From Akkermansia sp. (lineage in GTDB: Bacteria > Verrucomicrobiota > Verrucomicrobiia > Verrucomicrobiales > Akkermansiaceae): a stretch of DNA of 64,000 nt. Positions 3,181 to 18,694 of the stretch are shown one piece after another; within the stretch, counting starts at the first letter, position 1; each line of letters opens with the position of its first letter. A program made the position numbers and the translations under genes. The stretch lies in assembly GCA_045538275.1 (NCBI GenBank), contig JAZSRB010000008.1:15750-79749 (forward strand). Direction: 5' to 3'. The notes under the pieces are model-generated. The model did no database searches. It was not told where the DNA came from and was given only the letters and a program-made list of their open reading frames with translations.

Positions 3181-3615
3181 TCAGAAGGTCAACATCGTAT
3201 AAAGAGCCCGTATCAGGTAATAAGCCGGCACTCCGATTGCCACCAGCACCAGAAGAAGTTGCAACACTTTCTTACGCATCCAGAGTCCCTTCCCTTTCTT
3301 CAATTCCTTGAGCACGTGCAACAAGGATGAGATATATGGCAGCATCAAGGTAAACAGAAAAGCCAGTATCAGAACCACGTACACCATCGCCGGCATTTTT
3401 CCTGGCATGACAATATCATAGGTCAGCACACCGAAAAGCGCCAGGAGCACGAGAAATTTCAACACAAGCAGCGCATAAATCACCGGGTGCTGCCGAATCC
3501 GGATTTTACGATACTTATCCACGTAGACCATACCATCCTTTCCCGGCAGAATATGCGTGCGAAAAAACAGGCCTGCCAAAAACGCCATGAGGATGATAAA
3601 GAATACTTCTAACAT
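3181..3615 (-). CDS. Hypothetical 4-TM membrane protein
   Basis: 144-aa ORF with four hydrophobic segments and an internal repeat (ILPGKDGMVYV / VMPGKMPAMVYV). Visibly more AT-rich than its neighbours. Confidence 0.75.
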   Translation of the reverse strand: MLEVFFIILMAFLAGLFFRTHILPGKDGMVYVDKYRKIRIRQHPVIYALLVLKFLVLLALFGVLTYDIVMPGKMPAMVYVVLILAFLFTLMLPYISSLLHVLKELKKGKGLWMRKKVLQLLLVLVAIGVPAYYLIRALYTMLTF

Positions 3616-3668: not shown

Positions 3669-3757
3669 TAAGTCCGCCGTAGGCGGATATCGTCGCGGCA
3701 TCGCCGCGATATCTCTCCTGCGGGAAGACGATATCCTCCCGTTGGTCGGACGGGAAA
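3669..3757. repeat. Array of short hairpins punctuated by GATATC (right copy)
   Basis: Starts with TAAGTCCGCCGTAGGCGGATATCG, matching 3039-3062 at 23/24 positions. GATATC at 3686, 3708 and 3730. Confidence 0.8.
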
Positions 3758-3786
3758 AATGGGCCTGGCGCTGCTGCACCAGGCCC
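3753..3786 (-). terminator. Rho-independent terminator closing the terminase-containing unit
   Basis: Stem gggcctgg/ccaggccc (3761-3786) followed on the minus strand by ATTTTT. Confidence 0.65.
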
Positions 3787-3795
3787 GTTGGTTCC

Positions 3796-3924
3796 TCACA
3801 GCAATCCTGCGGCTGCACAGGCGCCGATGATGGCACCGGCAATGAGCTTGGCCCAGGATTCCTTGATTCCCCAACCAGTCAGCAGACTGGTCAGCCAGTT
3901 GTGTTGTGTATTATGCGTATTCAT
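3796..3924 (-). CDS. Small hydrophobic protein (42 aa) downstream of the terminase, possibly lysis/holin-like
   Basis: Manual translation: MNTHNTQHNWLTSLLTGWGIKESWAKLIAGAIIGACAAAGLL*. Begins 16 nt after the TerL stop and ends just before a terminator. Below the ORF-track length cut-off. Confidence 0.65.
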   Translation of the reverse strand: MNTHNTQHNWLTSLLTGWGIKESWAKLIAGAIIGACAAAGLL

Positions 3925-3940
3925 AGGGGAATTTTCTGCA

Positions 3941-5545
3941 TCACATGCGAGCGCGGCGGGGCGTTAAACGCAGCTGCACGGGGTAGGCCATGCCATGCGT
4001 CAGCGCCTCGGCAAACATACGGGCGGCATCTGCCGAGTGCGAAGAAGCATCGTGCACCGGGGTTTCACGATAGGTGCCGCTGGCCCCGGCGGGAGCGGTG
4101 CGGTACATTTCCAGGCAGCTGAGGCCGGAGGGTTCCTTTTCCCCGCGCGGGTTGACGCGCTGCTGCAGGGTATCGCGGTGGAACCAGCTGTGCGCCAGGA
4201 TACCACGCAGCGAATTGATACCGCGCCAGATATCCGGTGTGCGGGGCACCACCCGCACGGCGCAGATTCCCTCGCGCGCCAGACTTTCCACATAGGACTG
4301 CCCGTGCGGGTCGCGGTGGGCGGCATCGTGCGGCAGGAAATGCGCGGCAATATGGCCATAGCTCATCTCCCATTCGCGGATTTTTCCGGCAAAGTGCTCC
4401 AGCGGCAGCTGGTTGGCTGAATAGTGGTTCAGCCAATAGACATTGCCGCCGTAATTCTGCACCAGCCAGATGGAGGTGTGGTCGCTGAGTCCTAAATCCC
4501 ACGCGGTGTAGAGCGGCTCCTGCGGGTTGTAGTCGAACGCACAGCCAATGCGTCCCTTTTCGCGCAGCCGGGCAATCTGCGCACCGTAGATGGCGCCATC
4601 GTTGCCGGTGGCAAAGGCTTCATCCGGCGTGGAGGGGTATTCCTGCCGCATGGCAGCACCCATGGTGCGCTCCATGCGGGCGTACCAGAGTTTCTGTGCG
4701 TGGGTAAGCTGCACCCCGCACTCCTGCTCCAGCTTCTCGAAATAGGCAGCCTGGGCATCGGACCAGCCGGCCTTACCCTGCAAGGCATAGTCCGGGTTAT
4801 CGAACCAGCTCATGAAGAAGAAGCGGAAATCGAGCGGCGAAAGCTCCTCTTTGGCACAATTTTCCATGGCCTGTGAGGTCATTTCATAGTTCACGCCGTA
4901 GCGGCCCCCCTCATGCGTACTTTCCAGGATGATGGTACCCTCTGCCGGCACGGTATTAATGGCACCTGTTCGGATTTCACGTGCGCGCCAGGGCGCATGC
5001 ACCGAAACATGCGCCAGCTCGCTCACATGCAGCAGCTGCAGTGTGCCGCCGCGCAGGGTGGTACCCAGGCGGATATCGCTGCCATTGGCAAAGGCAAGGC
5101 GGCCGCGGGCATCCGCCGCGGGGTGCCAGGCTCCCTTTTTCACCATGCCGCTCTGCTGCTTGATGAGGTAGCCTACGCAGGCAAGAGCCTGTTCCTCCTC
5201 CGTAGCATGCGGCGGCAGGTAATCGAGGTGCTCCCAGGCAAAGCGCACCTTTTCGAGCTTCTGCTCGGCATCCGGCAGGGTCTTATCAATGATTCCCGCG
5301 TGGAAATTCGGCGTGAACAGGCAGTTATCCAGCATGAGCATGGCCACATAGGTGGAAATGCCCAGCTGGCGCGCCTTGAGCACCACATTGCGGTGCCACA
5401 GGTTGCGGTGCAGCCGCAGCTGCGCCGCATTGGGGGTGAACCTCTGCATGCGCCCGGATTTATTCTCAATCCAGTACAGGTTATTCAGGCGCCAGAGCGG
5501 GTCGCTCAGGCGGCTGCGGAACTGGGGATCAATAGAAGTCAGCAT
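3941..5545 (-). CDS. terL: Phage terminase large subunit (TerL)
   Basis: Walker A-type VLKARQLGISTY, Walker B LLHVSE, coupling motif ESTHEG, and RNase H-like nuclease motifs AWDLG, PHDA, HSADAARM. Start chosen at ATG 5545 (MLTSIDPQ); 5569 and 5572 are alternatives. Confidence 0.9.
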   Translation of the reverse strand: MLTSIDPQFRSRLSDPLWRLNNLYWIENKSGRMQRFTPNAAQLRLHRNLWHRNVVLKARQLGISTYVAMLMLDNCLFTPNFHAGIIDKTLPDAEQKLEKVRFAWEHLDYLPPHATEEEQALACVGYLIKQQSGMVKKGAWHPAADARGRLAFANGSDIRLGTTLRGGTLQLLHVSELAHVSVHAPWRAREIRTGAINTVPAEGTIILESTHEGGRYGVNYEMTSQAMENCAKEELSPLDFRFFFMSWFDNPDYALQGKAGWSDAQAAYFEKLEQECGVQLTHAQKLWYARMERTMGAAMRQEYPSTPDEAFATGNDGAIYGAQIARLREKGRIGCAFDYNPQEPLYTAWDLGLSDHTSIWLVQNYGGNVYWLNHYSANQLPLEHFAGKIREWEMSYGHIAAHFLPHDAAHRDPHGQSYVESLAREGICAVRVVPRTPDIWRGINSLRGILAHSWFHRDTLQQRVNPRGEKEPSGLSCLEMYRTAPAGASGTYRETPVHDASSHSADAARMFAEALTHGMAYPVQLRLTPRRARM

Positions 5546-8500
5546 CTTCAGGAAGGTGTTCGTTATCATCATCCAGGGGGGGAGGCAGCTCCTCCTCGCT
5601 ATAGTTGTTCGGGTATGGCGAAACAACGCGGTTCAGCACCGTCTGAATCAACTGCACATCCTCCGGTTTCTTGCGCAAGACATCGCAGAATTCCACCAGA
5701 GCCTGTACATGCTCATCACGGTTCACGCCAAATTCTGCCAGCAACATATGGCGAGCCAGCTCACTTGTTAAAGCCTCGCCACGTGTCAGCTGGTCTGGCT
5801 CACGAGTCAGCAGGAAATAGGACAAGCGGGAATCCTGGAATATTTGCATGAACATTTCTTCATTGTTGATATTACGTTCCTCACCTCTTTCCCAATCCTC
5901 TGCGCTCCTGGTCCGGTGCTTCAGCAGATTATCCATATACACCTTCAACTGACGCTTGCGCCAGCGGCAATTAGAGGCATAATCATACATGCGCTCCAGC
6001 TCAAAATCAAACAGATTCAGCGGGGTAAGAGTATGCGGTATCTCATGCGGTTTTCGTGCCATACGAGGACGCAACAGCGGAATGCCATCCGATGTTTGTA
6101 CCACATATGGTGCACGCTGATGCGGGCTGGCGGAATCCGGCATACCCGGCATCAGACGCACCATCTGGTCTGGCAGACGTGTCGTACGATACACCGTCAC
6201 ATACTGCAGGCGCGAGGTATCCAGCTCTCCCGGACGGATTCCCCCAAGCTTCACCCCACAGACAGTCGGAGGATTATCCGCCCCCATCCCATCGGCCCAT
6301 TCTGCCACGCGCTCATAATGCCGCATGAACGATTCCAGGCCGACCTCCGGAGTCCAGCGATTATCCACCTTGCCAGGGGGCTTACCGTCCACCCCGCCAT
6401 AGCGTTCCATATCCCACCAGATGCCATCCGGGCCGACATAGGGCACCTTCACCACGCTGCGGCGAAGCTCAGAAAGCAGACGCAGAGCTGGCATGACACG
6501 TTCATCACCATGGTATTCAGGAGGCAATTCCACCTGATTTTCCATAGAATACCCCTTTTGGACCAGGTCCGGGCGGAACACACGTGTATTCCCCCCCTTG
6601 GTATAATCCGGTTCCGCAATATTATCGGTCTGAATCGGGTTCAACGACATTCGGCAGATTTCACTACCCCCGCGTTCCGTAATACCATATGCACGCAACT
6701 CCGGGTACTTCTGCAACACCTCACCCAATTCCTGCATGGCAGCCTCCGGCGAACGGGTACCGAATACATCCGCCAATTCCGACTGCAACAGGGTGCGTTC
6801 AGATTCGGGCAGAAGTTTCCAGCCCCGCGCCGGGTCATCCAACAGGTTCCAGAGAGCCTGCCCCGCTGCACGGAACGTGCGTTCCCCACCATAAGCAAAG
6901 CACCATCCCTGCTCAAAGCGGCGGGCGGAGTCCGGTTCATAGGCATTTCTGAGGTATTTTTCCAAAGGAATAGGATTATCCTTATTATAGCGACGGCGAA
7001 GGGCTGCCACATCTGGAATCATCTCCTTGACCTGCTCAGCCGCAATGCGGTTCGCACGCACCAGTCGCTCACGATAGTTGATAGCCGATTCCTGTATCGT
7101 AAACTTGCTGAACGGTGTGGTGTAGAACCATTGTTTCACCGAATTCGGCAGCTGGGACTCGCGCATATGCGCCAGCATATACCGTACATTGAGCTCAGAC
7201 ATGCAGCTGGCCAATCGCGCATTCATTTTTACCGGGTCTCCAGGATGAATTAAATTCGGATACCGGCGGCGCATGATACGGCGTTTCGATCCGGTGATGC
7301 GGGTATCATCCATCTTATAATCACGCCCGATTTCCAGAACCTGGTCGCGTTCCTCCGGCGACAGCAGATTCTCACGCACCAACAAATCGGCCACTTCCTC
7401 CGGTTCAACCCATTTGGAGGACAGCATACGATTCCAATACGCCTTGAAACTGAGTTGCGCAAGCGAAAGCGGGGTCAGCGGGCGGCTGTGACGCACCAGG
7501 TAACGGTCTGTTTCATCCTTTACCAGCTTCAGCGTATGGTCCAGGCGGCGGCCTTTGTAACGGGTCCAGTTCTTATTCTCCCGGACAAACTCAAGCCCCA
7601 CCTTGAACAAAGTGGAATCCCCCATCCATTGCGCGCAGAGGTCACGAGCCGCAGTATTACACAAATGGTCATAGCCCAGATATGCTTTCTGCTGCATCGG
7701 GAACATATTGCTGCGCAAATACGACACGCGCTCCGCAGCATCCTTGACCATACCACGTTGTAATTCCGGAATCAGCATATTCTTGCCCATGGGAAGGAAC
7801 GAGGTTTCCACATTACCTACTACCGAATTTACCACATAGCCAGGGAATTCGAACCACGGCGTATAACGGCCATCGGGACGCTTCATGCGCCAGAGCTTTC
7901 CCCCCTTGCCATCAGGAGTGCTCTCTAGATCGTTCCCGCTCAAGTCCGAATAACGGAGCATCACCTCGCTATTCATGTCGTACCGGGCACGATTATCGCT
8001 CATATCAGGCCGGATTTCTGAAAGCGGCTTGGGGTCCCATACCTTCCGGTCCAGGCAGTCTCCAAACTCCCGATTCAGCAGATGCGCGTAAATATCTGCC
8101 GGGGCGTGCGCCATGCATAGCGCATCCTGGAAATCCCGGGTATGCGGAATAACCTGCATGAGGGCATCTGCGCAGGAACGCAGGCTGAGAATAATGCGAT
8201 AAGCCTCCACTAACTGAGGTGCATCCGTTTTTCGCGGCAGACGGGTCCGCTTTACAGCATGTTCATAGCAATTGGTAAAGGCATGGCGCGGTTCATCTCT
8301 CAACCACCGCGGAGCATGACCTGAATAATGGCGGCGCTGCATATACATATGCCCGATACGCTCACACAGCATATTCAGAGACTCCTCACGAGGCATGCCG
8401 CGCTGCCAGCGGTCAATGGCAGCGCACACTTCACTATGAATGAGGGCGCGCCGCTGCTCGCTGCGATAACGAGCCTCCTTCTGGCTCTTGTTGATACGCC

Positions 8501-10676
8501 TCAGACTATCCAACGTTTCCGTGTTCAACAAATAACGATAGCCAAGTCTCTTCACTTCCTCCACGTAATCATTCATAACCGCGCGGATAGCCTCCTCCCG
8601 GAACGGGCTGTAAAAGCCATTCAACTGAGCCTGTTTGGGAATTTCTGCCGGTTTTCCCTGAGCAATACGGAGCATGCGCTGATCGTATTCCTTGAGCTGC
8701 TGTTTATTCTTCAGCATCTCCCCATTTGCCAGCTGAAACCACTCATCATACAGCAGCAGGTAAGGAATCGCCTGCTCTGCATTCAACGGGCGGCGTTTCT
8801 TCCCGGTGGCATTCTCCACCAGCATATCAAATGTCTCCGGGTCATTCACATCCCGTTTCACCAGCTCCGGGCGCGACAAGCCATCCCGGTCAGCGCGTTT
8901 CTGCAGGAAAGCACGGGCGGTTTCTTCCTCCTGGAAACCGATATGATGCTCCGTATTGAGCAGCTTGAGAGACCTCAGCACCTCCTCCAGCGGGCCGGTA
9001 CCCGCCCACCGGCGGCTGCTGCAGAGAGCCTCCCTCAGCAACTCATTCTTCGCATGAATGTCAGGTTCATCCAGAATACGTTTCCGGGTTGCTTCATTCA
9101 CCCCCCAATCTGCCAGAATCTCCCCATTATCCAGCAACGCAGAGGGGGAGCGGAAATGGTGCAATGCCGCGCGACCAGACGCTATCAACACATACGGCAA
9201 GTTCATAGCAGCCTCTCGCATATTAGTTTCAATATCGGTGAAATTATCACCGAAGCTTTCCCAATCAATGTTGGAGGCCACCTTATCTACACGGGCTGCC
9301 AGCTCCTGCATACCCAGTTCAGTAGCCTGCGCAGCCTTACCCGCCAGAAGCATCTTGGCATTCTCCGCCGTCAGCGTACCCAGCCCCTGGAGCGCGGCTA
9401 GTGAATACCCCGCCACCCCCGCATTGCGGGCTTTCATGAAGTTGGCAATTGTGCGGTTAAGCATCTGCGCGCCGACGCGGGTCATTCCCATGTAAATCCC
9501 AGCCTGCAGCCCACCAGCCAGAATGCCAGCGGCTGTCTGAAGTTCCTGGCGTCCCTTGGGTGAGCGCTGGCGCGCCTCTGCCACCGCCGCCCCCGTACCA
9601 GCCAGAGTCAGCGCAGCAAAGCCGGCCCCTCCCATGAAAGCCATGGCAGCCCCGGGGATTGCCCCGGCAGCATCCACCGCCATCTGCTCCGCCAGGTGAG
9701 CATCTTCACCCAGGTCAATGGGGAATAATTCGCCTTGTGCCACGCTGCGTAATTCATGCAGAGCCTGAAGCCGCTTATCGGCAGCAATGCTGTACCGGCG
9801 CAGCGTATCGCTATCAAAGGTCTCACCGGCAGCCCGCGTAAGCGCCGTTGAAACATGACCAATCCCCTGCAGCAGGGAATGCCCCACATCTGCCGTACCG
9901 CGGCGCATACTGTGCAGCACAGCCTCTCCCAGATGCGCCGGTTTTTCCTCCAACGCACGGGTGGAGTCCAGCGAACGGGCCACAGCATACACACGAGCCC
10001 GGGCATCGGCATCCATATCAGCCAGCGCATCCACAGCCTGCACCAGGTCAGGAGTATTGGTAATTACCTTGGGGAAAGTGACCAAATCTGTTTCCAGCGT
10101 CTTAATAAGTTCCCATGCCTCCGAGAGAGATTCGGCCAGGGGCATATACTGCTCACGCTCCTGGTAACCAAGCTGCAAAGCTGCCTCATACACGCTACGT
10201 TCGGCGGCATCCTCCGGCTGTTTCGTATCCTTGCCCTGCAGCGCAGCATGATAAGTCTGCTCGTAAAGCTGGCGGGCTTTCTGGCGCACAGGGACCTCGC
10301 TGTTCTGTACTGAAAGTGCAGTAAACAGCTCTGGTTCAGTATCGCGCACCCCCAGTTCCCGAGAAATATTCCGCCGCAGTTCAGACCATTCGGCACGCAC
10401 CTTCTCGCGCTCCAGCCCACGGTGGTCCACCACCCAGGAGCGGTTGATACTGGACATAAGCTGGTAGTCCCGCTCCTCAGCCGGGCGGGATTCATCATCA
10501 GCTCCAGCCTTATGGCGCACCTCTGCCGGCACGGTAGACGGGTCACCAGTCAGCAAGGTGTTCCAATACTGGCTCTTCTCCCATTCCTTGCCGGAATTCA
10601 CCTCGCGCAGCGGCGGAAGCGACTCCAGCGGTACGGGCTTTCTGATTTCTTCTATTTCTTGTTCCATGTTATTCAT
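5529..10676 (-). CDS. Very large hypothetical protein (1715 aa), phage internal-virion/DNA-ejection-like
   Basis: Uninterrupted 5.1-kb ORF. Helical N-half with a Gly/Ala-rich hydrophobic segment (AAGAIPGAAMAFMGGAGFAALTLAGTGAAV). Its 3' end overlaps the terL start. The function is inferred from context only. Confidence 0.8.
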   Translation of the reverse strand: MNNMEQEIEEIRKPVPLESLPPLREVNSGKEWEKSQYWNTLLTGDPSTVPAEVRHKAGADDESRPAEERDYQLMSSINRSWVVDHRGLEREKVRAEWSELRRNISRELGVRDTEPELFTALSVQNSEVPVRQKARQLYEQTYHAALQGKDTKQPEDAAERSVYEAALQLGYQEREQYMPLAESLSEAWELIKTLETDLVTFPKVITNTPDLVQAVDALADMDADARARVYAVARSLDSTRALEEKPAHLGEAVLHSMRRGTADVGHSLLQGIGHVSTALTRAAGETFDSDTLRRYSIAADKRLQALHELRSVAQGELFPIDLGEDAHLAEQMAVDAAGAIPGAAMAFMGGAGFAALTLAGTGAAVAEARQRSPKGRQELQTAAGILAGGLQAGIYMGMTRVGAQMLNRTIANFMKARNAGVAGYSLAALQGLGTLTAENAKMLLAGKAAQATELGMQELAARVDKVASNIDWESFGDNFTDIETNMREAAMNLPYVLIASGRAALHHFRSPSALLDNGEILADWGVNEATRKRILDEPDIHAKNELLREALCSSRRWAGTGPLEEVLRSLKLLNTEHHIGFQEEETARAFLQKRADRDGLSRPELVKRDVNDPETFDMLVENATGKKRRPLNAEQAIPYLLLYDEWFQLANGEMLKNKQQLKEYDQRMLRIAQGKPAEIPKQAQLNGFYSPFREEAIRAVMNDYVEEVKRLGYRYLLNTETLDSLRRINKSQKEARYRSEQRRALIHSEVCAAIDRWQRGMPREESLNMLCERIGHMYMQRRHYSGHAPRWLRDEPRHAFTNCYEHAVKRTRLPRKTDAPQLVEAYRIILSLRSCADALMQVIPHTRDFQDALCMAHAPADIYAHLLNREFGDCLDRKVWDPKPLSEIRPDMSDNRARYDMNSEVMLRYSDLSGNDLESTPDGKGGKLWRMKRPDGRYTPWFEFPGYVVNSVVGNVETSFLPMGKNMLIPELQRGMVKDAAERVSYLRSNMFPMQQKAYLGYDHLCNTAARDLCAQWMGDSTLFKVGLEFVRENKNWTRYKGRRLDHTLKLVKDETDRYLVRHSRPLTPLSLAQLSFKAYWNRMLSSKWVEPEEVADLLVRENLLSPEERDQVLEIGRDYKMDDTRITGSKRRIMRRRYPNLIHPGDPVKMNARLASCMSELNVRYMLAHMRESQLPNSVKQWFYTTPFSKFTIQESAINYRERLVRANRIAAEQVKEMIPDVAALRRRYNKDNPIPLEKYLRNAYEPDSARRFEQGWCFAYGGERTFRAAGQALWNLLDDPARGWKLLPESERTLLQSELADVFGTRSPEAAMQELGEVLQKYPELRAYGITERGGSEICRMSLNPIQTDNIAEPDYTKGGNTRVFRPDLVQKGYSMENQVELPPEYHGDERVMPALRLLSELRRSVVKVPYVGPDGIWWDMERYGGVDGKPPGKVDNRWTPEVGLESFMRHYERVAEWADGMGADNPPTVCGVKLGGIRPGELDTSRLQYVTVYRTTRLPDQMVRLMPGMPDSASPHQRAPYVVQTSDGIPLLRPRMARKPHEIPHTLTPLNLFDFELERMYDYASNCRWRKRQLKVYMDNLLKHRTRSAEDWERGEERNINNEEMFMQIFQDSRLSYFLLTREPDQLTRGEALTSELARHMLLAEFGVNRDEHVQALVEFCDVLRKKPEDVQLIQTVLNRVVSPYPNNYSEEELPPPLDDDNEHLPEDADFY

Positions 10677-10682
10677 AATGTC

Positions 10683-11918
10683 TTATTCCGGTTGGTAGCA
10701 CACCCAGTTATCACTTTCTTCCTGCAGCTGAGTGAGCCATTGTTCACTTTCTTTTTCCGGGCGCCTCATCAAGCGCTGCAGAGCCTCCTCCTGCAAACGG
10801 CCGAGACATTGCACAGCCTCCGCATCTCCCGGGCAACCGAAGCGGCCTTCATGGTACATATTCCACAATCTGCGGCTCATACCGCTGCGCTGCTGCGGCG
10901 GCACCTGCGCACTCTTTTGCAAGCGCTGCAGCAAAAACAATCTCTGCTCAGCCGGAATCGGCGCCAAGGCAATGTCCACCACGAATTGCTCGTCATCTCC
11001 ATCGGCACGTTCATCTATGCGGCGCAACCAGTTGCAAGCCTCTACTGAGGAAAGAGCCCTCCTGGGGCACTGCAGTTTTTCCACGGAATCCGGCTTGATT
11101 ACACCGGCTGCCACCGCACTGTGCAGAGCAGCGGCATCGGGTTCAGTTCCCTGCTCAACCCCAGCAGCCAGCTGCAATGCCAGCGCGCTGAATACCCCCT
11201 TGCGGGCCTGTTCCACTTCTCCTTCCAAGGCGCGGATATCCTCCGCCCCCTGGGGGCGGGGGTCCGACTCTGCATCCCAGGCAGCCAGCGCCTCGTGCGG
11301 ATTCTGCTGCAAGCGCTGCTGCCAGCGCGAATGAAGGCTGCGGCTCTGTGCATCCGACAACTGCTGCTGCATATCTTCCTCCGGCACAAAAATTTCGCGT
11401 CCCTGTTCCAGCCATTGGCAGGCGGCTTCAGCATCTCCCCGCAGCACTGCGGAATCCACCTGCTCCTGCCACCGGCGGCGCGATTGGTGGAGACGCTCCA
11501 CCTCCATACGGCGGCGCCCTTCCAACGAATAGCGGCAACCATAAGCCTCGCTCATCCTGCGTGCCCGCTCCCGAGTCTCCCCACTGAATTGCTCCAGCAT
11601 TTGCTGCACTCGCGGAGTATAGGCCTGATTCCAGCTGTAATCCCAGTCCCGTACCGGATTTTCCAGCAGCTCCTCCGTAGTTTCCCGCGCAATTTCATCA
11701 AGCATACCGGCCACATCCGCATCATTTCCTGCGGATGATACCCGGTAGATAGCATCTGCCAGCTCAGCAACACCTGCGCCAGCAGCAGCAACGCCCTGCC
11801 CCAGCACCCGGCCAGAGCGGCTCCAATCATTTAACGCATTGAGCGGCAAGTGCACTCCCTGACGCGGATACGCCAGCATGCCCCACTCTTTCATTCGAAT
11901 AGCCATGCTGAGAAGCAT
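10683..11918 (-). CDS. Hypothetical helical protein (~410 aa), phage ejection-protein-like
   Basis: N-terminal Gly/Ala-rich amphipathic segment (GRVLGQGVAAAGAGVAELADA) followed by a Q/E/R-rich helical region. Stop is 6 nt from the next start. Start uncertain (11894, 11906, 11918 or 11942). Confidence 0.75.
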   Translation of the reverse strand: MLLSMAIRMKEWGMLAYPRQGVHLPLNALNDWSRSGRVLGQGVAAAGAGVAELADAIYRVSSAGNDADVAGMLDEIARETTEELLENPVRDWDYSWNQAYTPRVQQMLEQFSGETRERARRMSEAYGCRYSLEGRRRMEVERLHQSRRRWQEQVDSAVLRGDAEAACQWLEQGREIFVPEEDMQQQLSDAQSRSLHSRWQQRLQQNPHEALAAWDAESDPRPQGAEDIRALEGEVEQARKGVFSALALQLAAGVEQGTEPDAAALHSAVAAGVIKPDSVEKLQCPRRALSSVEACNWLRRIDERADGDDEQFVVDIALAPIPAEQRLFLLQRLQKSAQVPPQQRSGMSRRLWNMYHEGRFGCPGDAEAVQCLGRLQEEALQRLMRRPEKESEQWLTQLQEESDNWVCYQPE

Positions 11919-11988
11919 GGCACGATACCCCCACCGGGTCAATCATACCCGGTGGGTCGGCAGCGCGTTCCAGCCTGTACCCGCAACC

Positions 11989-12663
11989 CTACGGCACCAA
12001 CTTCATATCATCATCAAACACTATACGAAGCGGTTGAGCAGTAGGAATTTCCAACTGCTCAACACCAGCCGGGCTCAGTCCACGCAAGTGCATCACCAGC
12101 GCCCGCAGACTGTTACCATGCGCCACCACCAGCAACCGCTCCCGCGCATACAGGCGGGGGCGCAATTCCTCCTCCCAGCAGGCGCGCACACGCCGCAGTG
12201 TATCCTTGAGAGATTCCGTAGCCGGCAACAGCGACGGAGAAACACCTGCATAGCGAGGGTCATTCCCCGGCCAACGCTCATCGCCCATGGGAATCGGTGG
12301 CGGGGGGCAATCAAACGCACGCCGCCAGCGGTGCACCAGCTCCTCCCCCATTTCCTGTTCCACCTCCCGCTTATTCCGTCCCTGCAGAACACCGTAATGC
12401 TTCTCATTCAAACGCCAGTCTTTGTACACAGGAACCCAGGCACAATCCAACCCTGCCAGCACAATATTGAGCGTATGAATCGCCCGCATAAGCAGAGAGG
12501 TACACGCCGCGCCACACACAAACCCGCTTTCTGCCAGGCGGCGCCCGGCCAGCTCGGCCTCATGCCGCCCCCTCACAGACAAAGGCACATCTGCCCAGCC
12601 AGTAAATCGGTTGTCGGCATTCCATTGAGATTCCCCATGCCTCAGCAACACAAGTTCTTTCAT
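11989..12663 (-). CDS. gpmA: 2,3-bisphosphoglycerate-dependent phosphoglycerate mutase
   Basis: LVLLRHGESQWN, FTGW, RLNEKHYG.LQG, ESLKDT and VAHGNSLR motifs. Confidence 0.96.
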   Translation of the reverse strand: MKELVLLRHGESQWNADNRFTGWADVPLSVRGRHEAELAGRRLAESGFVCGAACTSLLMRAIHTLNIVLAGLDCAWVPVYKDWRLNEKHYGVLQGRNKREVEQEMGEELVHRWRRAFDCPPPPIPMGDERWPGNDPRYAGVSPSLLPATESLKDTLRRVRACWEEELRPRLYARERLLVVAHGNSLRALVMHLRGLSPAGVEQLEIPTAQPLRIVFDDDMKLVP

Positions 12664-12731
12664 GCAGAAATGATGCGCTATTGGCACTCCACAATTGCAA
12701 AACGGGCAGAATCTGTTACAATACCATACGT

Positions 12732-13163
12732 ATGACCCGGATTCGCCTTATCTTTCTGCTCATCATCCTTTCCTTTATCTGCAGCCTGATACTCATGCTG
12801 CCCGGCTGGTTCAGAGACCCGGAAAAACTGGTGCAGGGCGAGTGGCAGGAAGCAAACAAACTCGGCTTTGTCGAGGTAACCGATTCCACCGCCCGCTGGC
12901 GCGGCAGTAACTACAAGGGGACCTTCCACTACACCTGGGTGCAGACGGACTCCGAACCCTACACCGCTGAAGTCTCCCGCCATAAAGATAAATGGCTCAT
13001 CGGCATCACCTTTGAGGATGATGACCATGCCGTGGTAGATTTTTACATCATGGATAAACTCCCACAGGAAGCCCGCGACTTTATCCGCCAGAAAAACCGG
13101 GCAAAAAGCCGCCCGGAGGACGAACTCAAACTGCGTTTCCGCCGAATCAAAGCGGGAAATTAG
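12732..13163 (+). CDS. Hypothetical exported/membrane-anchored protein
   Basis: N-terminal TM/signal (MTRIRLIFLLIILSFICSLILML) followed by a beta-rich domain. Promoter TTGCAA-16-TGnTACAAT directly upstream. Confidence 0.75.
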   Translation: MTRIRLIFLLIILSFICSLILMLPGWFRDPEKLVQGEWQEANKLGFVEVTDSTARWRGSNYKGTFHYTWVQTDSEPYTAEVSRHKDKWLIGITFEDDDHAVVDFYIMDKLPQEARDFIRQKNRAKSRPEDELKLRFRRIKAGN

Positions 13164-15446: not shown

Positions 15447-16628
15447 ATGATTATCGGCATACTCAATTCCGGCGGCGACTGCCCCGGCATCAATGCGGTG
15501 ATTGAAGGCTACGTCTCCGCTGCCTACCGCCGCGGTTGGCGAGTCATCGGTTTCCACGACGGCTTCGAAGGTCTGCTCCCTGTAGCAGGCGGCCGCCGTT
15601 ATGAAACCCTCACTCCCAGCAAAACACATAAAATCCGCGCTTATGGCGGTACCATTCTCGGCACCACCAGCACCGGCAACTTCAAGGTAGTCACCAACAA
15701 GGTAGGCCGCCGCCAGGTGGATCGCGAAGTTATGGCCAAAGCCAAAAAGACCATTAACGCCCTGGGGCTCCAGGCTCTGGCCGTTATCGGCGGCAGCGGT
15801 TCTGCACGCACAGCCAAGCTCCTCTCCGAGGAAGGGCTTCCCGTGATTTCCATTCCCAAAACCATTAACAACGACCTCTGCAGTGACTCCGACTACACGT
15901 TCGGATTCCACAGCGCCGTTTCCGTGGTAACTGAATCCATTGACCGCATCCGCACCACCGCCAACGCCCACCAGCGCATGATGGTGATTGAGGTAATGGG
16001 CGACATGTCCGGCTGGATTGGTCTTTACGGCGGCATTGCCGCAGCAGCAGACGTAGTACTCATCCCCGAAATCGACTACGACCTTGAAAAAGTGATTGAA
16101 TGCATCAAGGCCCGCAAAGCCACCGGTCAGCGTGAAATCATCGTTGTTGTAGCGGAAGGCTCCCGGCTGAACGGCCAGCTTGTTACGGTTCACAACAAAG
16201 AAAATGGAGATGAACGCCTCGGCGGCATCGGCAACAAGCTCTCCCACATTCTGCAGGAACGCACCGGCATTGAAACCCGCTACTGCGTGCTGGGACACAC
16301 CCAGCGCGGTGGCTCCCCCTGCGCATTTGACCGCATCCTGGGCGTGCGCTTCGGCGTTGAGGCCGTAAAACTCATTGAGAAAAAAGACTTCGGCAAAACC
16401 GTTGTGCTCAATGGTCTCAACATCGACAACGTCCCCATTGAGGAAGCCGTGGCTCACCACCGCTTCGTGAACCCCGATAGCCAGATTATCAGCACTGCTC
16501 GTGACCTGGGCATCATCTTCGGCGACCGCAGCCCGGAGGAAATGCACCATGACCGCAAGCGGGTATGCTCCACCAAAAAGGAACCCGCCCGCAAGTGCTG
16601 CAAATCCAAGTCGGCAAAGTCTAAATGA
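15447..16628 (+). CDS. 6-phosphofructokinase paralog with degenerate active site
   Basis: Pfk fold motifs (GGDCPG, GGTILGT, RYCVLGHTQRGG) are present, but GGSGS, PKTINND and MGD replace GGDGS, PKTIDND and MGR. K/C-rich C-terminal tail. Confidence 0.85.
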   Translation: MIIGILNSGGDCPGINAVIEGYVSAAYRRGWRVIGFHDGFEGLLPVAGGRRYETLTPSKTHKIRAYGGTILGTTSTGNFKVVTNKVGRRQVDREVMAKAKKTINALGLQALAVIGGSGSARTAKLLSEEGLPVISIPKTINNDLCSDSDYTFGFHSAVSVVTESIDRIRTTANAHQRMMVIEVMGDMSGWIGLYGGIAAAADVVLIPEIDYDLEKVIECIKARKATGQREIIVVVAEGSRLNGQLVTVHNKENGDERLGGIGNKLSHILQERTGIETRYCVLGHTQRGGSPCAFDRILGVRFGVEAVKLIEKKDFGKTVVLNGLNIDNVPIEEAVAHHRFVNPDSQIISTARDLGIIFGDRSPEEMHHDRKRVCSTKKEPARKCCKSKSAKSK

Positions 16629-17587
16629 ACAAAGCCCTCACATATCTGTGCGCGTTAGGGGGCATGGTCAGCAGCCTGCTCACCTCATGCTCCCACCAGG
16701 AGATTATAACGCCGGAAAAAACAACCCCCAGCTATGTTGCTATGGAGGTTAACTCCGGGCGTGTGCTTTACTCATCCAACTCCAACCTCAAGCGCCCCAT
16801 CGGCATGCTGACCAACCTGGCCACCGCCGTAGTCGTCATGGACTGGGTAAAGGCATACCAGGTGGACATGAACCGCCTCATCACCGTACCGGCAGGTGCT
16901 GTGGTCTGGCATCGCACCAACCTGCTCCGTCTGCGTGCGGGCGACAGCATCTCCGTGCGAGATGCTCTGTATTCCGCCCTCATGTGGGATGACAGCGCCT
17001 GCGCCACCACCCTGGCCTATGCTTGCGGCAGCAACCTGAGTACCAGCAACCCGGAGGGGGCCTTCATCGCCCAGATGAACAACCTCGCCCGCAAGCTGGG
17101 CATGACCTCCACCGTATTCAAGGGAACCAATGGAGCCGTCATCACCCAGTCATCTGCGCGAGATATGGCCCTGCTGGGCATCTACGCCACCAACGATACT
17201 GATTTGCTGGCCATTACTGCCCAGACCGGCTGCATCGTCACCATACACTCTGCCTCCGGCACACGCCGCCAGACCATCCGCAACAACAACAAGTTGCTCA
17301 GCGGCTCCGGTCATGTGGATGGGCTCAAGGTCGGGCAATCCCGCAGCGCAGGCAGCTGCCTCATGGTGACCGCACGCCGCGCCTCCGTAAAACGCATCAA
17401 CCCCTCCACCGGCAAAGAAGCTACCTTTGCGCAGCGTCTGCTGGTGGTCATGCTCGGCATGCCCTCCTCCAACACCCGCTACAAGGAAGCTGCCCGCTTC
17501 CTGCGCGATGGCTGGAACGCATGGGACGCATGGTTGCCCACTAACGATTACCTGGATAGAACAAAATTCATCATACTTCCCGAATAA
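16625..17587 (+). CDS. Peptidase S11 (D-Ala-D-Ala carboxypeptidase)-like lipoprotein with degenerate catalytic motifs
   Basis: Lipobox LTSC. S11-like segments (SGRVLY..N...RPI, MN..A..LGMT.T.F, DGLK.G....AG.CL). SxxK reads MLTN and KTG reads KVG. ATGA overlap with the upstream pfk paralog. Confidence 0.8.
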   Translation: MNKALTYLCALGGMVSSLLTSCSHQEIITPEKTTPSYVAMEVNSGRVLYSSNSNLKRPIGMLTNLATAVVVMDWVKAYQVDMNRLITVPAGAVVWHRTNLLRLRAGDSISVRDALYSALMWDDSACATTLAYACGSNLSTSNPEGAFIAQMNNLARKLGMTSTVFKGTNGAVITQSSARDMALLGIYATNDTDLLAITAQTGCIVTIHSASGTRRQTIRNNNKLLSGSGHVDGLKVGQSRSAGSCLMVTARRASVKRINPSTGKEATFAQRLLVVMLGMPSSNTRYKEAARFLRDGWNAWDAWLPTNDYLDRTKFIILPE

Positions 17588-17593
17588 AAGCTT

Positions 17594-18694
17594 ATGAACA
17601 TTGGTATTCTCAACGCCGGTGGCGACTGCCCCGGCCTCAACGCCGTGATTGAAGGTGCCGTTGGCGCCGCATCTGCCCGCGGGTGGACCGTCTATGGCTT
17701 CTATGATGGCTTTGAGGGCTTGCTCTCCACGCCTGAAAACGAACGCTGGCGCATCCTGACGCCCGAAAACTGCCTCAACATCCGCTCCACCGGCGGCACC
17801 ATCCTCGGCACGGTAAACAAAGGCAACTTCACCGTGAAAAGCGGTGTTGGCGGCCGTATGCAGATTGCGGAAGACGTGCTGGCCCGCAGCAAGGCAACCG
17901 TAGAACGCCTTGGCCTCTCAGCCCTCATCGTTGTGGGCGGCGATGGTTCCCAGACCATTGGTCAGGAACTCCGCCAGATAGGTCTGCCCATTGTGGGGGT
18001 GCCCAAGACCATTGATAACGACCTGGGAGCCACAGACTACACCTTCGGTTTCTGGACCGCTGTTTCCGTGGTCAGCAAGCAGCTCGACCGCCTGCGCACC
18101 ACAGCCTATTCTCACCAGCGCATCATGGTGGTGGAAGCCATGGGGCGCCACGCCGGCTGGATTGCCCTGTATGGCGGCATCTCCGGTGGTGCAGACGTGA
18201 TTCTCATCCCCGAGATTCCCTTCACCCTGGAAGACGTAGTGCGCAAGGTGGAACTCACCAAGGCCCTCGGCCAGCGCGAAATCATCATCGTGGTAAGTGA
18301 AGGCGCCACCATCGGCGGCAAACTCCTCACGCTGGATGAAGAGACCAAGGGCGAAGTACGCCTCGGCGGTATTGCCGCATTCCTCTCCACCAAGCTCGAG
18401 ACCCTCACAGGCATCGAAACCCGCTACTGCGTACTGGGCCACACCCAGCGCGGCGGCTCCCCGATTCCCTTCGACCGCGTACTCGGCGTGCGCTGCGGAG
18501 CCAAGGCTATCGACCTCATCGAGGAAGGCAAGTTCGGCGAAACCGTGGCCCTGCACCGCACCGACATGGTTTCCATGCCCATCGAAGAAGCCGTGCGTAC
18601 CCTGCACCTGGTGGACAGCAAGAGCCAGCTCATCGAAGCCGCCCGCGAAATCGGCATTTCCTTCGGTGATGCAGCCGATGCAGGCAACATCTGA
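17594..18694 (+). CDS. pfkA: 6-phosphofructokinase (G104/K124 mixed-substrate type)
   Basis: Intact GGDCPG, GGDGS, PKTIDND, MGRHAGW and LGHTQRGG. Confidence 0.93.
   Translation: MNIGILNAGGDCPGLNAVIEGAVGAASARGWTVYGFYDGFEGLLSTPENERWRILTPENCLNIRSTGGTILGTVNKGNFTVKSGVGGRMQIAEDVLARSKATVERLGLSALIVVGGDGSQTIGQELRQIGLPIVGVPKTIDNDLGATDYTFGFWTAVSVVSKQLDRLRTTAYSHQRIMVVEAMGRHAGWIALYGGISGGADVILIPEIPFTLEDVVRKVELTKALGQREIIIVVSEGATIGGKLLTLDEETKGEVRLGGIAAFLSTKLETLTGIETRYCVLGHTQRGGSPIPFDRVLGVRCGAKAIDLIEEGKFGETVALHRTDMVSMPIEEAVRTLHLVDSKSQLIEAAREIGISFGDAADAGNI

Follow-up and report, generated by a model that had tools for sequence, protein, structure and literature searches.

The window analysed here, a stretch of 64,000 nucleotides from an Akkermansia sp. 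contig, contains between positions 3796 and 11972 what is probably the operon for packaging and internal proteins of a dispersed, podovirus-derived system resembling a gene transfer agent (GTA), owned by the host since before the genus diversified and spread over at least four loci. The identities of the genes, their single origin, the purifying selection on them, their joint inheritance and loss and the cis word common to the loci were observed; formation of particles, their packaged content, release and transfer were inferred. A sequence-only reading of the same DNA had suggested that the unit might be a single module of a dispersed system, either GTA-like or domesticated in some other way, and this was supported by synteny, dN/dS, the TerL clade and co-occurring orphan genes, with the GTA function itself still an inference.

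The three-gene cassette and its proteins

The features of the unit and its upstream neighbour were as follows.

11989..12687 (-), gpmA-type phosphoglycerate mutase (Pfam His_Phos_1 1.6e-37, TIGR01258 2e-84), upstream neighbour
11958..11972 (-), promoter-proximal word TGGAACGCGCTGCCG, 54 nt upstream of the p419 ATG and followed by TTGACC-N17-CATGCT
10683..11918 (-), p419, first operon gene, 411 aa from the ATG at 11918, or 419 aa from a TTG at 11942
5529..10676 (-), big1715, giant protein of 1715 aa
3941..5545 (-), TerL, large terminase by sequence, 534 aa from the ATG at 5545, with the ORF open to 5626
3796..3924 (-), pep42, final ORF of the unit, 42 aa, hydrophobic at its C-terminus
3761..3786 (-), intrinsic terminator closing the unit, 11-bp stem with 9 G-C pairs, then a T-run

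The ORF map and the gaps agreed with the same-strand order of gpmA, a ~410-aa ORF, a 1715-aa ORF, terL and a 42-aa ORF that had been described earlier, and the single terminator said to close the unit was found as a strong hairpin with a T-run (3786..3761, minus strand). The spacing from gpmA to p419 was 70 nt with the ATG start, which is that of the public gene call (P0055, 411 aa), or 46 nt with the TTG start; p419 and big1715 were separated by 6 nt and TerL and pep42 by 16 nt, while big1715 and TerL overlapped by 17 nt. Since the relatives of TerL align from approximately residue 27-36, the ATG at 5545 is its likely start. Membership of pep42 in the unit is uncertain; tblastn detected it in only two of 20 other-species loci (L016 and L029), and no family match was found in Pfam or PHROG. 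The flanks within the window consist of host genes (Sel1, ABC-F, DHDPS, AGE, two PFK, PBP and P-type ATPase), and beside the cassette there were housekeeping genes and no integrase or att-like context. That no small terminase, portal, capsid, tail or integrase gene and no att site is seen in the window had been noted before, and when structural proteins from the prophages of this genome were used as tblastn queries they matched nothing else in the window.

The three genes p419, big1715 and TerL were syntenic at every complete locus in approximately 60 Akkermansia species, with flanks that vary by clade, and of the order gpmA-X-Y-terL whose synteny was to be checked, X-Y-terL was kept throughout. 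Intact 8-kb units were retained across these species with partner proteins down to 21-26% identity. The dN/dS values, also to be checked, were far below 1, at 0.02-0.08 for TerL and 0.16-0.28 for its partners (0.16-0.23 for p419 and 0.18-0.28 for big1715). The further claim that the unit is wired behind gpmA applied to the closest relatives and failed elsewhere: gpmA adjoined the cassette in only three of the 20 compared loci (L013-L015, the closest) and in same-clade relatives within another locus set, and unrelated genes took its place upstream of the cassette in other clades. A conserved element of its own lies upstream of the cassette, for which reason adjacency to gpmA was considered clade-specific and incidental, and gpmA is an upstream neighbour outside the system. 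Upstream neighbours in cluster 3 were considered as integrases and rejected; by eye they are secreted or PA14-like host proteins. About one quarter of the species have lost the system, and in one lineage (G004), the only one with lesions, it has decayed: TerL contains a stop and the big gene is split; the system is therefore dispensable. Homologues of the portal, capsid, tail and big genes were present in a sister genus (G078), in which TerL was not detected.

Judged by its sequence, the ORF at 3941..5545 is a large terminase, combining an ASCE ATPase (Walker A/B and coupling motif) with an RNase-H-like nuclease that has an acidic triad. It matched the profiles phrog_2 (7.5e-25), phrog_26724 and phrog_2472 (both ~1e-42) and, above the cut-off, Terminase_6C, and was approximately 35% identical to annotated phage TerLs; no match was obtained against PDB sequences. 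The ATPase and nuclease motifs, previously described as intact, proved invariant across 71 cassette TerLs (Walker A K57, R59, G62, S64 and T65, the glutamate of HVSE, the EST coupling motif, and the nuclease residues D350, D355, D407 and D506) and match those in phage TerLs. The dN/dS of TerL resembled that of housekeeping neighbours (0.02 vs 0.03 for ABC-F), and its identity dropped in parallel with ABC-F identity across genomes. In the TerL tree, a comparison that had been recommended, 61 cassette TerLs formed one slowly evolving clade with short branches (SH-aLRT 99), and Akkermansia prophage TerLs lay outside it on long branches.

The protein p419 is helical and evolves fast. No match to it was found in Pfam, PHROG, PADLOC or NCBIfam, and those of its 84 relatives that carry a source name were all from Akkermansia. 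Its profile gave two matches: on a podophage contig (L114), a 627-aa gene that directly precedes the gene of a giant protein (E 1.2e-8), and, in a prophage of a different Akkermansiaceae genus, a protein of 749 aa (E 1.4e-14). Distant p419-big pairs without this TerL were present in other Akkermansiaceae genera, at least one of them in a context that by eye is prophage-like: a DnaC-like loader is present, and the p419 homologue carries a tail resembling a cell-wall hydrolase.

Full-length relatives of big1715 were confined to Akkermansia, and no match was obtained in Pfam, PHROG, PADLOC or NCBIfam, in a profile search of PDB or, by tblastn, in 50,697 phage records. Its N-half (AF2 pLDDT 78) consists of helices throughout and contains, at approximately residues 300-550, a conserved hydrophobic core rich in Gly and Ala, and its C-terminal 835 residues have a confidently predicted alpha/beta fold without known relative (pLDDT 88, pTM 0.84). 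Foldseek returned nothing significant for the N-half against PDB or for the C-half against PDB and BFVD. Approximately residues 100-555 were homologous (E ~1e-26) to giant phage proteins of 2200-3739 aa, which are encoded downstream of portal and scaffold genes and carry ART-PolyVal, LPD3, LPD37 and MuF_C, that is, they are polyvalent proteins. One of these giants lies on the podophage contig mentioned above, together with a TerL (40% identical), a T7-type portal and the p419-like 627-aa gene; on the strength of such homology, p419, big1715 and TerL all appear to be of phage origin, with homologues in one podophage lineage. Synonymous divergence in the p419-big1715 segment was 2-4 times that of the flanks, which suggests allele exchange as in conflict genes.

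From the homology of a single region, taken for both proteins jointly, and from gene position, big1715 and p419 are inferred to be internal virion proteins, big1715 an ejected one; no virion domain such as MuF was detectable in either. The internal core (ejection) proteins gp14, gp15 and gp16 of T7 are large and mostly helical, are encoded late in the podovirus structural region and contain hydrophobic segments. The role inferred for p419 and big1715 would resemble theirs by a positional analogy only, and no sequence similarity of the inferred internal proteins to T7-type ejection proteins, nor any fold similarity in the case of big1715, was detected.

Orphan structural genes and a shared promoter-proximal word

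The search for orphan partner genes elsewhere in the genome, suggested by the sequence-only reading, yielded capsid, portal, scaffold and tail genes at the following positions.

C14:4943-5848, lone major capsid gene (phrog_3437 6e-50), ~10 kb left of the window
C27:43876-47163, portal operon: 131-aa ORF, 65-aa ORF, portal (phrog_332 9e-86), 91-aa ORF and a protein in scaffold position (phrog_3742)
C27:47229-47867, tail-tubular-A gene (phrog_394 6e-40), divergent from the portal operon
C15:74066-76525, lone tail-tubular-B gene (phrog_376 8e-124)

These genes sit among host genes, and no integrase was found beside the loci. In a genome of 2,664,102 bp the four loci lay at 0.46, 1.79, 2.21 and 2.50 Mb, with the cassette at 462,976-471,123, the capsid gene at ~1.787 Mb, tail B at ~2.208 Mb and the portal at ~2.504 Mb. 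The phyletic pattern of portal, capsid and tail B was determined in 51 genomes, where it was 36 present to 15 absent. Portal (60-92% identity), capsid (59-96%) and tail B (31-77%) were present in approximately 33 cassette-bearing Akkermansia genomes, the exceptions being three single gene misses, all in MAGs of 83-90% completeness. All 15 cassette-lacking Akkermansia genomes were without orthologues of the three genes and had prophage paralogues at 25-42% only. The orthologues follow host divergence. The same genomes also harbour prophages of related podophages, whose TerL, portal and tail genes belong to the same families as those of the system.

Several searches around these loci were negative. 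Genes for a TerS, for a tail fibre or receptor-binding protein and for lysis (holin, endolysin) were not identified for the system; PHROG gave no match for the 131-aa and 65-aa ORFs or for a 144-aa membrane protein, and Rfam no family for a conserved leader of the capsid gene. A 177/258-aa locus was ruled out as a core part, its candidates not being conserved. The nearest annotated phages are phiES15 and PS-1, and neither their cognate portal nor their capsid had a homologue in the genome; the real partners are of T7 type.

The 13-mer core of TGGAACGCGCTGCCG occurred exactly twice in the 2.1-Mb genome, upstream of p419 and upstream of the orphan capsid gene. A degenerate form was also located upstream of the tail-B gene and of the portal operon, bringing the number of loci to four. 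In other species, clade-specific versions of the word were common to the loci at the same offsets, and the word changed in step between clades. The degenerate motif was built from the four loci that it matched, and weight was placed only on the exact 13-mer, the absence of other matches and the co-variation across clades. A sigma-54 reading of the word was ruled out by misfit of the spacing and of the -12 element, and an ECF-type -35 (GGAAC) is possible in one clade only.

Probable gene transfer and its alternatives

Two criteria for a GTA were met by these observations. The phage genes are vertically inherited under purifying selection, as seen in the TerL clade, the dN/dS values of 0.02-0.28 and orthologues that track the host, and they do not make up a self-sufficient phage, being divided over four loci with housekeeping flanks and no integrase. 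On the most likely reading, the particle system is a podovirus-type gene transfer agent (viriform), with particles, packaged DNA and transfer all inferred. In the proposed mechanism, a dedicated regulator would switch on all loci through the shared promoter-proximal element; no regulator was identified and there are no expression data. Capsid, scaffold and portal would form procapsids, into which p419 and big1715 would be taken up as internal proteins. TerL, for which no cognate TerS was found, would dock on the portal and carry out headful packaging of DNA that most likely comes from the host chromosome. The absence of TerS is compatible with non-specific packaging and does not demonstrate it. 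The tail proteins would then close the particle, and when the particle meets a recipient, its internal proteins may be ejected together with the DNA.

The same dispersed particle system could instead serve a purpose other than gene transfer, namely delivery of the giant protein as an effector, interference with incoming podophages through competition for, or poisoning of, their assembly, or killing or lysis. We regard this as unlikely while still deserving attention: big1715 and p419 evolve fast, in the segment of raised synonymous divergence; the N-region of big1715 is shared with polyvalent proteins, which have been read as conflict effectors (PMC5512222); and the same genomes contain the related podophage prophages. 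However, both catalytic sites of TerL are kept under housekeeping-level constraint, implying packaging of DNA, no effector domain was detectable in big1715, and genus-wide vertical inheritance is unlike the patchy distribution typical of defence islands.

Less credible still is a capsid-free machine made of the three genes alone, for example a terminase-driven membrane channel of ejection-type proteins or a nuclease defence, with the orphan structural genes as unrelated relics. The tight coupling of the three genes in one operon, the hydrophobic core of big1715 and the distant p419-big pairs lacking this TerL would fit such a machine, but the cassette is present and absent together with portal, capsid and tail B over the 51 genomes, bar the three MAG misses, the cis word co-varies across loci, and at least one of the distant pairs has, by eye, prophage-like surroundings.

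That the unit is what a decaying prophage, or one recently deleted (the main alternative when the DNA was first described), left behind without function can practically be set aside: the missing partner phage genes in the window and the lesions of G004 speak for it, but recent deletion was contradicted by the synteny of intact, widely diverged units in approximately 60 species, by dN/dS far below 1, by the single origin and slow evolution of TerL and by housekeeping flanks without integrase or att-like context, and the marks of decay (patchy distribution, lesions, relaxed selection) were not met, with lesions in G004 only.

Relation to known systems and significance

RcGTA (Rhodogtaviriformidae, Alphaproteobacteria) is siphovirus-like and consists of a 15-kb head-tail cluster and accessory loci, with CtrA and GafA as regulators. 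The Akkermansia system resembles it in vertical inheritance, purifying selection and location at several loci; the RcGTA loci are under common host control and its terminase packages without sequence specificity, background that is in part summarised in PMC12946183. Unlike RcGTA, the Akkermansia system belongs to the T7-like podovirus type; it is also much more fragmented, and no counterpart of CtrA or GafA was identified.

Another parallel is FpGTA of Faecalibacterium prausnitzii, which its authors consider "most likely podovirus-like" (Borodovich et al., Nat Commun 2026;17:2046, PMC12946183). FpGTA comprises a 10.5-kb operon and a second locus, encodes lysis proteins (holin, endolysin) as well as an RBP and a candidate TerS, and is supported experimentally by packaged DNA, EM and proteomics. 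Both systems have phage-derived, host-inherited particle genes in a human gut commensal, at more than one locus, with TerL, portal, scaffold and capsid. The Akkermansia system differs in having at least four loci of mostly one to five genes, no TerS, RBP or lysis genes found and no experimental support for particles, and in its host phylum (Verrucomicrobiota vs Bacillota). It also has a giant polyvalent-type protein, and none was met in the consulted passages on FpGTA.

The polyvalent proteins of phages and conjugative elements have been interpreted as conflict effectors, and their copies in host genomes as remnants (Iyer et al., J Bacteriol 2017, PMC5512222). The resemblance of big1715 lies in the homology of its residues ~100-555 to giant podophage proteins encoded among virion genes. 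The criterion of being encoded among virion or packaging genes is met, big1715 lying directly upstream of TerL, and that of several effector or LPD domains in one polypeptide is not: big1715 has no Pfam domain and no recognisable effector, LPD or MuF domain, and its C-terminal 835 residues are without relatives.

Nothing relevant was found in the literature on a GTA, or on a terminase or portal, in Akkermansia. If the interpretation is true, the system would be a second GTA example of podovirus type, from a new phylum and with extreme dispersal of its genes. It would also link GTAs to the polyvalent class of injected phage proteins and offer a cis-regulatory word that can be tested. A bolder proposal, which we hold only tentatively and slightly on the doubtful side, is that Akkermansia, including A. 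muciniphila, makes a podovirus-type GTA as a chromosomal regulon of scattered single-gene and small-operon loci, under a dedicated regulator with a co-evolving word, in which a fast-evolving, recombining giant of polyvalent ancestry is injected with random host DNA. Under this proposal, no other GTA described would be as fragmented, and Verrucomicrobiota would have its first. A. muciniphila is among the most studied human gut commensals and is in development as a live therapeutic. If true, the finding would bear on the movement of genes among gut Akkermansia, including those for resistance or mucin use, on the safety assessment of probiotic strains, on the reading of bacterial DNA in gut virome preparations and on genetic tools for these hard-to-manipulate bacteria.

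Gene unit in the window and its phage ancestry

The arrangement proposed in the sequence-only reading, five ORFs on one strand closed by a terminator, was recovered with the same spacing by ORF and family searches. The genes flanking the unit in the window were ordinary host genes.

Features of the unit (window coordinates)
12687..11989, minus strand: gpmA, dPGM-family mutase
11918 or 11942 to 10683, minus strand: p419, ORF of 411 or 419 aa
10676..5529, minus strand: big1715, ORF of 1715 aa
5545..3941, minus strand: TerL (ORF open to 5626)
3924..3796, minus strand: 42-aa ORF
3786..3761: strong intrinsic terminator, downstream of the 42-aa ORF

Successive spacings were 70 (or 46) nt, 6 nt, an overlap of 17 nt, and 16 nt. 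TerL matched phrog_2, two half-length PHROGs (~1e-42) and Terminase_6C and was ~35% identical to annotated siphophage TerLs; these matches show it to be a genuine terminase large subunit, as had been supposed. No family match was found for p419 or big1715 in Pfam, PHROG, PADLOC or NCBIfam, nor any match for big1715 among PDB sequences or phage records. Long antisense ORFs opposite TerL/big1715 (4913-5851, 5844-7253 and 8328-9401, plus strand) were rejected as genes; G+C-rich coding sequence produces such shadow frames. Just past the terminator, a 144-aa multi-pass membrane protein (3181-3615, minus strand) is kept in the closest relative; its DUF6773 match was weak and below the cut-off, and no evidence ties it to the system. 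At 15447-18694, a D-Ala-D-Ala carboxypeptidase gene lies between two paralogous phosphofructokinase genes (~57% identical).

AlphaFold modelled the N-terminal half of big1715 as all-helical (pLDDT 78) and the C-terminal half as a confident alpha/beta structure (pLDDT 88, pTM 0.84); Foldseek returned no significant match for either half. When a profile of the N-terminal half was compared with 1.84 billion representative proteins, only 147 matched, and those beyond the Akkermansia family included giants of 2200-3739 aa sharing residues ~100-555. Since domains typed in 17 such giants included ART-PolyVal (7/17), LPD3 (2/17), LPD37 (1/17) and MuF_C (1/17), these relatives are polyvalent proteins, as that class is defined in PMC5512222. 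The contigs bearing the giants were podophage-like. On one of them, L114, the gene order runs from a TerL with 40% identity to that of the cassette, through a T7-type portal and small genes, to a 627-aa protein matching the p419 profile (E 1.2e-8) and then the giant. The three cassette genes (p419, big1715 and TerL) thus go back to a single podophage lineage. By position and size, we infer that p419 and big1715 are internal, ejected virion proteins.

Scattered partner genes and a shared upstream word

The window's own genome contains three TerLs of this family, two of which sit in podovirus-like prophages (C17:~154000-172000 and C22:~1-30000) and share 47% and 43% identity with the TerL of the cassette. 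Each prophage has a T7-type portal, a phrog_376 tail protein and an integrase, with a capsid-like and a scaffold-like gene assigned by eye, and both belong to the phage lineage that gave rise to the domesticated set. With the T7-type portal family as query, a third portal came to light in this genome, and 22 of 23 Akkermansia genomes each gave one high-scoring portal. The unit had been suspected to be one module of a dispersed system, and lone capsid, portal and tail genes, located by prophage/phage protein searches and then PHROG scans, were indeed found amid host genes elsewhere in the genome.

Lone structural genes outside the window
C14:4943-5848: capsid (phrog_3437, 6e-50)
C27:43876-47163: portal operon encoding a 131-aa protein, a 65-aa protein, the portal (phrog_332, 9e-86), a 91-aa protein and a 275-aa scaffold-position protein (phrog_3742)
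C27:47229-47867: tail tubular A, divergent from the portal operon (phrog_394, 6e-40)
C15:74066-76525: tail tubular B, adjoining nadE (phrog_376, 8e-124)

Judged by homology, these genes and the cassette together make up a nearly full T7-type virion set; no TerS, receptor-binding protein or lysis genes were identified for it. C27:51329-52635 encodes a 177-aa homologue of a protein from a prophage tail region, and a 258-aa ORF comes after it. The former is retained only in the closest relatives; the latter had no orthologue at that site in other genomes and matched elsewhere at only 26-35%, at least two of these matches lying beside prophage genes. The pair may be a fast-evolving receptor-binding accessory.

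Portal, capsid and tail B were scored against the cassette in 51 genomes. Orthologues were present in every cassette-bearing Akkermansia genome, at 60-92%, 59-96% and 31-77% identity, respectively, apart from three cases in which a single gene was missing from a MAG of 83-90% completeness. Portal, capsid and tail B were all absent from every cassette-less Akkermansia (15/15), where only prophage paralogues (25-42%) were found. The loci lie at 0.46, 1.79, 2.21 and 2.50 Mb in a 2,664,102-bp genome. That four unlinked loci were lost together is difficult to account for if they have no joint function.

In the 2.1-Mb genome the 13-mer GAACGCGCTGCCG has just two copies, one 54 nt before the ATG of p419 and the other ~200 nt before that of the capsid gene, each with a TTGAC-like hexamer 15-16 nt further on. 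A degenerate form matched the genome at four places, one ahead of each of the p419 operon, the capsid gene, tail B and the portal operon; because these sites served to build the pattern, its only informative result is that nothing else matched. Other species have a different word, yet one common to several loci at the same offsets: TGGAACGC.. in G029 and G036, TGGGCAATAAGTG in G017, GGGGGGCATGAAGT in G016 and the form GGGG.GCA.CATG.TGCGGCGG in G009. This co-variation suggests a single dedicated regulator, as yet putative and itself unidentified. The capsid leader (C14:5849-6050; ~170 nt from the promoter-like site to the ATG) is conserved across species (L117-L123), with blocks GGCAAGAGC, GCCGCGCGGCC, GGGTAATC and GCCGATTTGC. 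Rfam gave no family for it; a role as regulatory RNA or attenuator is possible.

Synteny, selection and history

Full-length relatives of big1715 (1686-1810 aa, 33-66% identity) were recovered. In two samples of the genus, big1715 was present in 32/37 and 40/53 genomes, and it was present in none of 24 genomes from other families of the order. Synteny was compared in 20-kb loci of 20 species and in 53 loci of public MAGs whose labels were without exception Akkermansia, Akkermansiaceae or Verrucomicrobiales. Every locus with a complete contig retained the order p419-big-TerL. The proposed wiring behind gpmA stood only as adjacency in the window, in its three nearest relatives among the 20 species and in MAG loci of the same clade; elsewhere the cassette was flanked by unrelated housekeeping genes (ribosomal protein S21, aminopeptidase, aldose epimerase; by eye). 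No integrase was found at the compared loci, and context was common within clades and different between them, which agrees with ordinary synteny loss more than with active mobility. The element upstream of p419 was present whichever gene preceded the cassette, in several species behind a terminator-like hairpin and T-run (by eye); on this basis the cassette is predicted to be its own transcription unit, its gpmA neighbourhood incidental.

Pairwise values against the closest relative
TerL: dN/dS 0.022, dS 0.42
ABC-F: dN/dS 0.029, dS 0.27
DHDPS: dN/dS 0.018, dS 0.54
big1715: dN/dS 0.19, dS 1.3
p419: dN/dS 0.16, dS 1.2
gpmA: dN/dS 0.12, dS 1.1

All three cassette genes had dN/dS far below 1. Synonymous divergence from big1715 to gpmA (window 5529-13163) was 2-4 times that of the flanks (dS 1.1-1.3 versus 0.27-0.64 for TerL and flanking genes). 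gpmA was only 81% identical to its counterpart in the closest relative, against 92-98% for its neighbours, and a 160-aa ORF (12681-13163) was likewise divergent (~74% protein identity). This suggests older alleles or recombinational allele exchange. Across genomes, identity to the window fell in parallel for ABC-F/TerL/big1715 (99/99/66, 97/88/45, 90/80/36 and 75/63/~30). In a tree of 83 TerLs, all 61 cassette TerLs formed one clade with short branches (SH-aLRT 99), and Akkermansia prophage TerLs, including the two of the window's genome, fell outside it on long branches. The ATPase and nuclease catalytic residues were invariant in 71 cassette TerLs. G004 (L032/L079, L112) appears to be in the process of losing the system: its big gene is broken into ORFs of 802 aa and 1006 aa, and its TerL, 8 kb away, has a stop codon.

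Interpretation and known systems

The cassette is best read as the operon for packaging and internal proteins in a dispersed, podovirus-derived, GTA-like system; its partner genes are scattered and co-inherited, and evidence of expression or particles is lacking. A particle system serving another purpose, such as effector delivery, anti-phage interference or killing, remains a rival. A self-contained three-gene machine is strongly disfavoured by the co-inheritance and co-loss with portal, capsid and tail B and by the shared word. A dead remnant, such as one left by the recent partial prophage deletion weighed in the sequence-only reading, is contradicted by the retained order, the low dN/dS and the single TerL clade.

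RcGTA is the model for dispersed loci under co-regulation. Our literature search found no report of such a system in Akkermansia. FpGTA of Faecalibacterium, a podovirus-like agent that occupies two loci and is supported by experiments (PMC12946183), is the nearest published case. In G078, a sister genus, no TerL was detected; portal and tail B lie just 2 kb apart, and a capsid gene and a collinear big homologue are present, so the particle gene set predates the genus Akkermansia.
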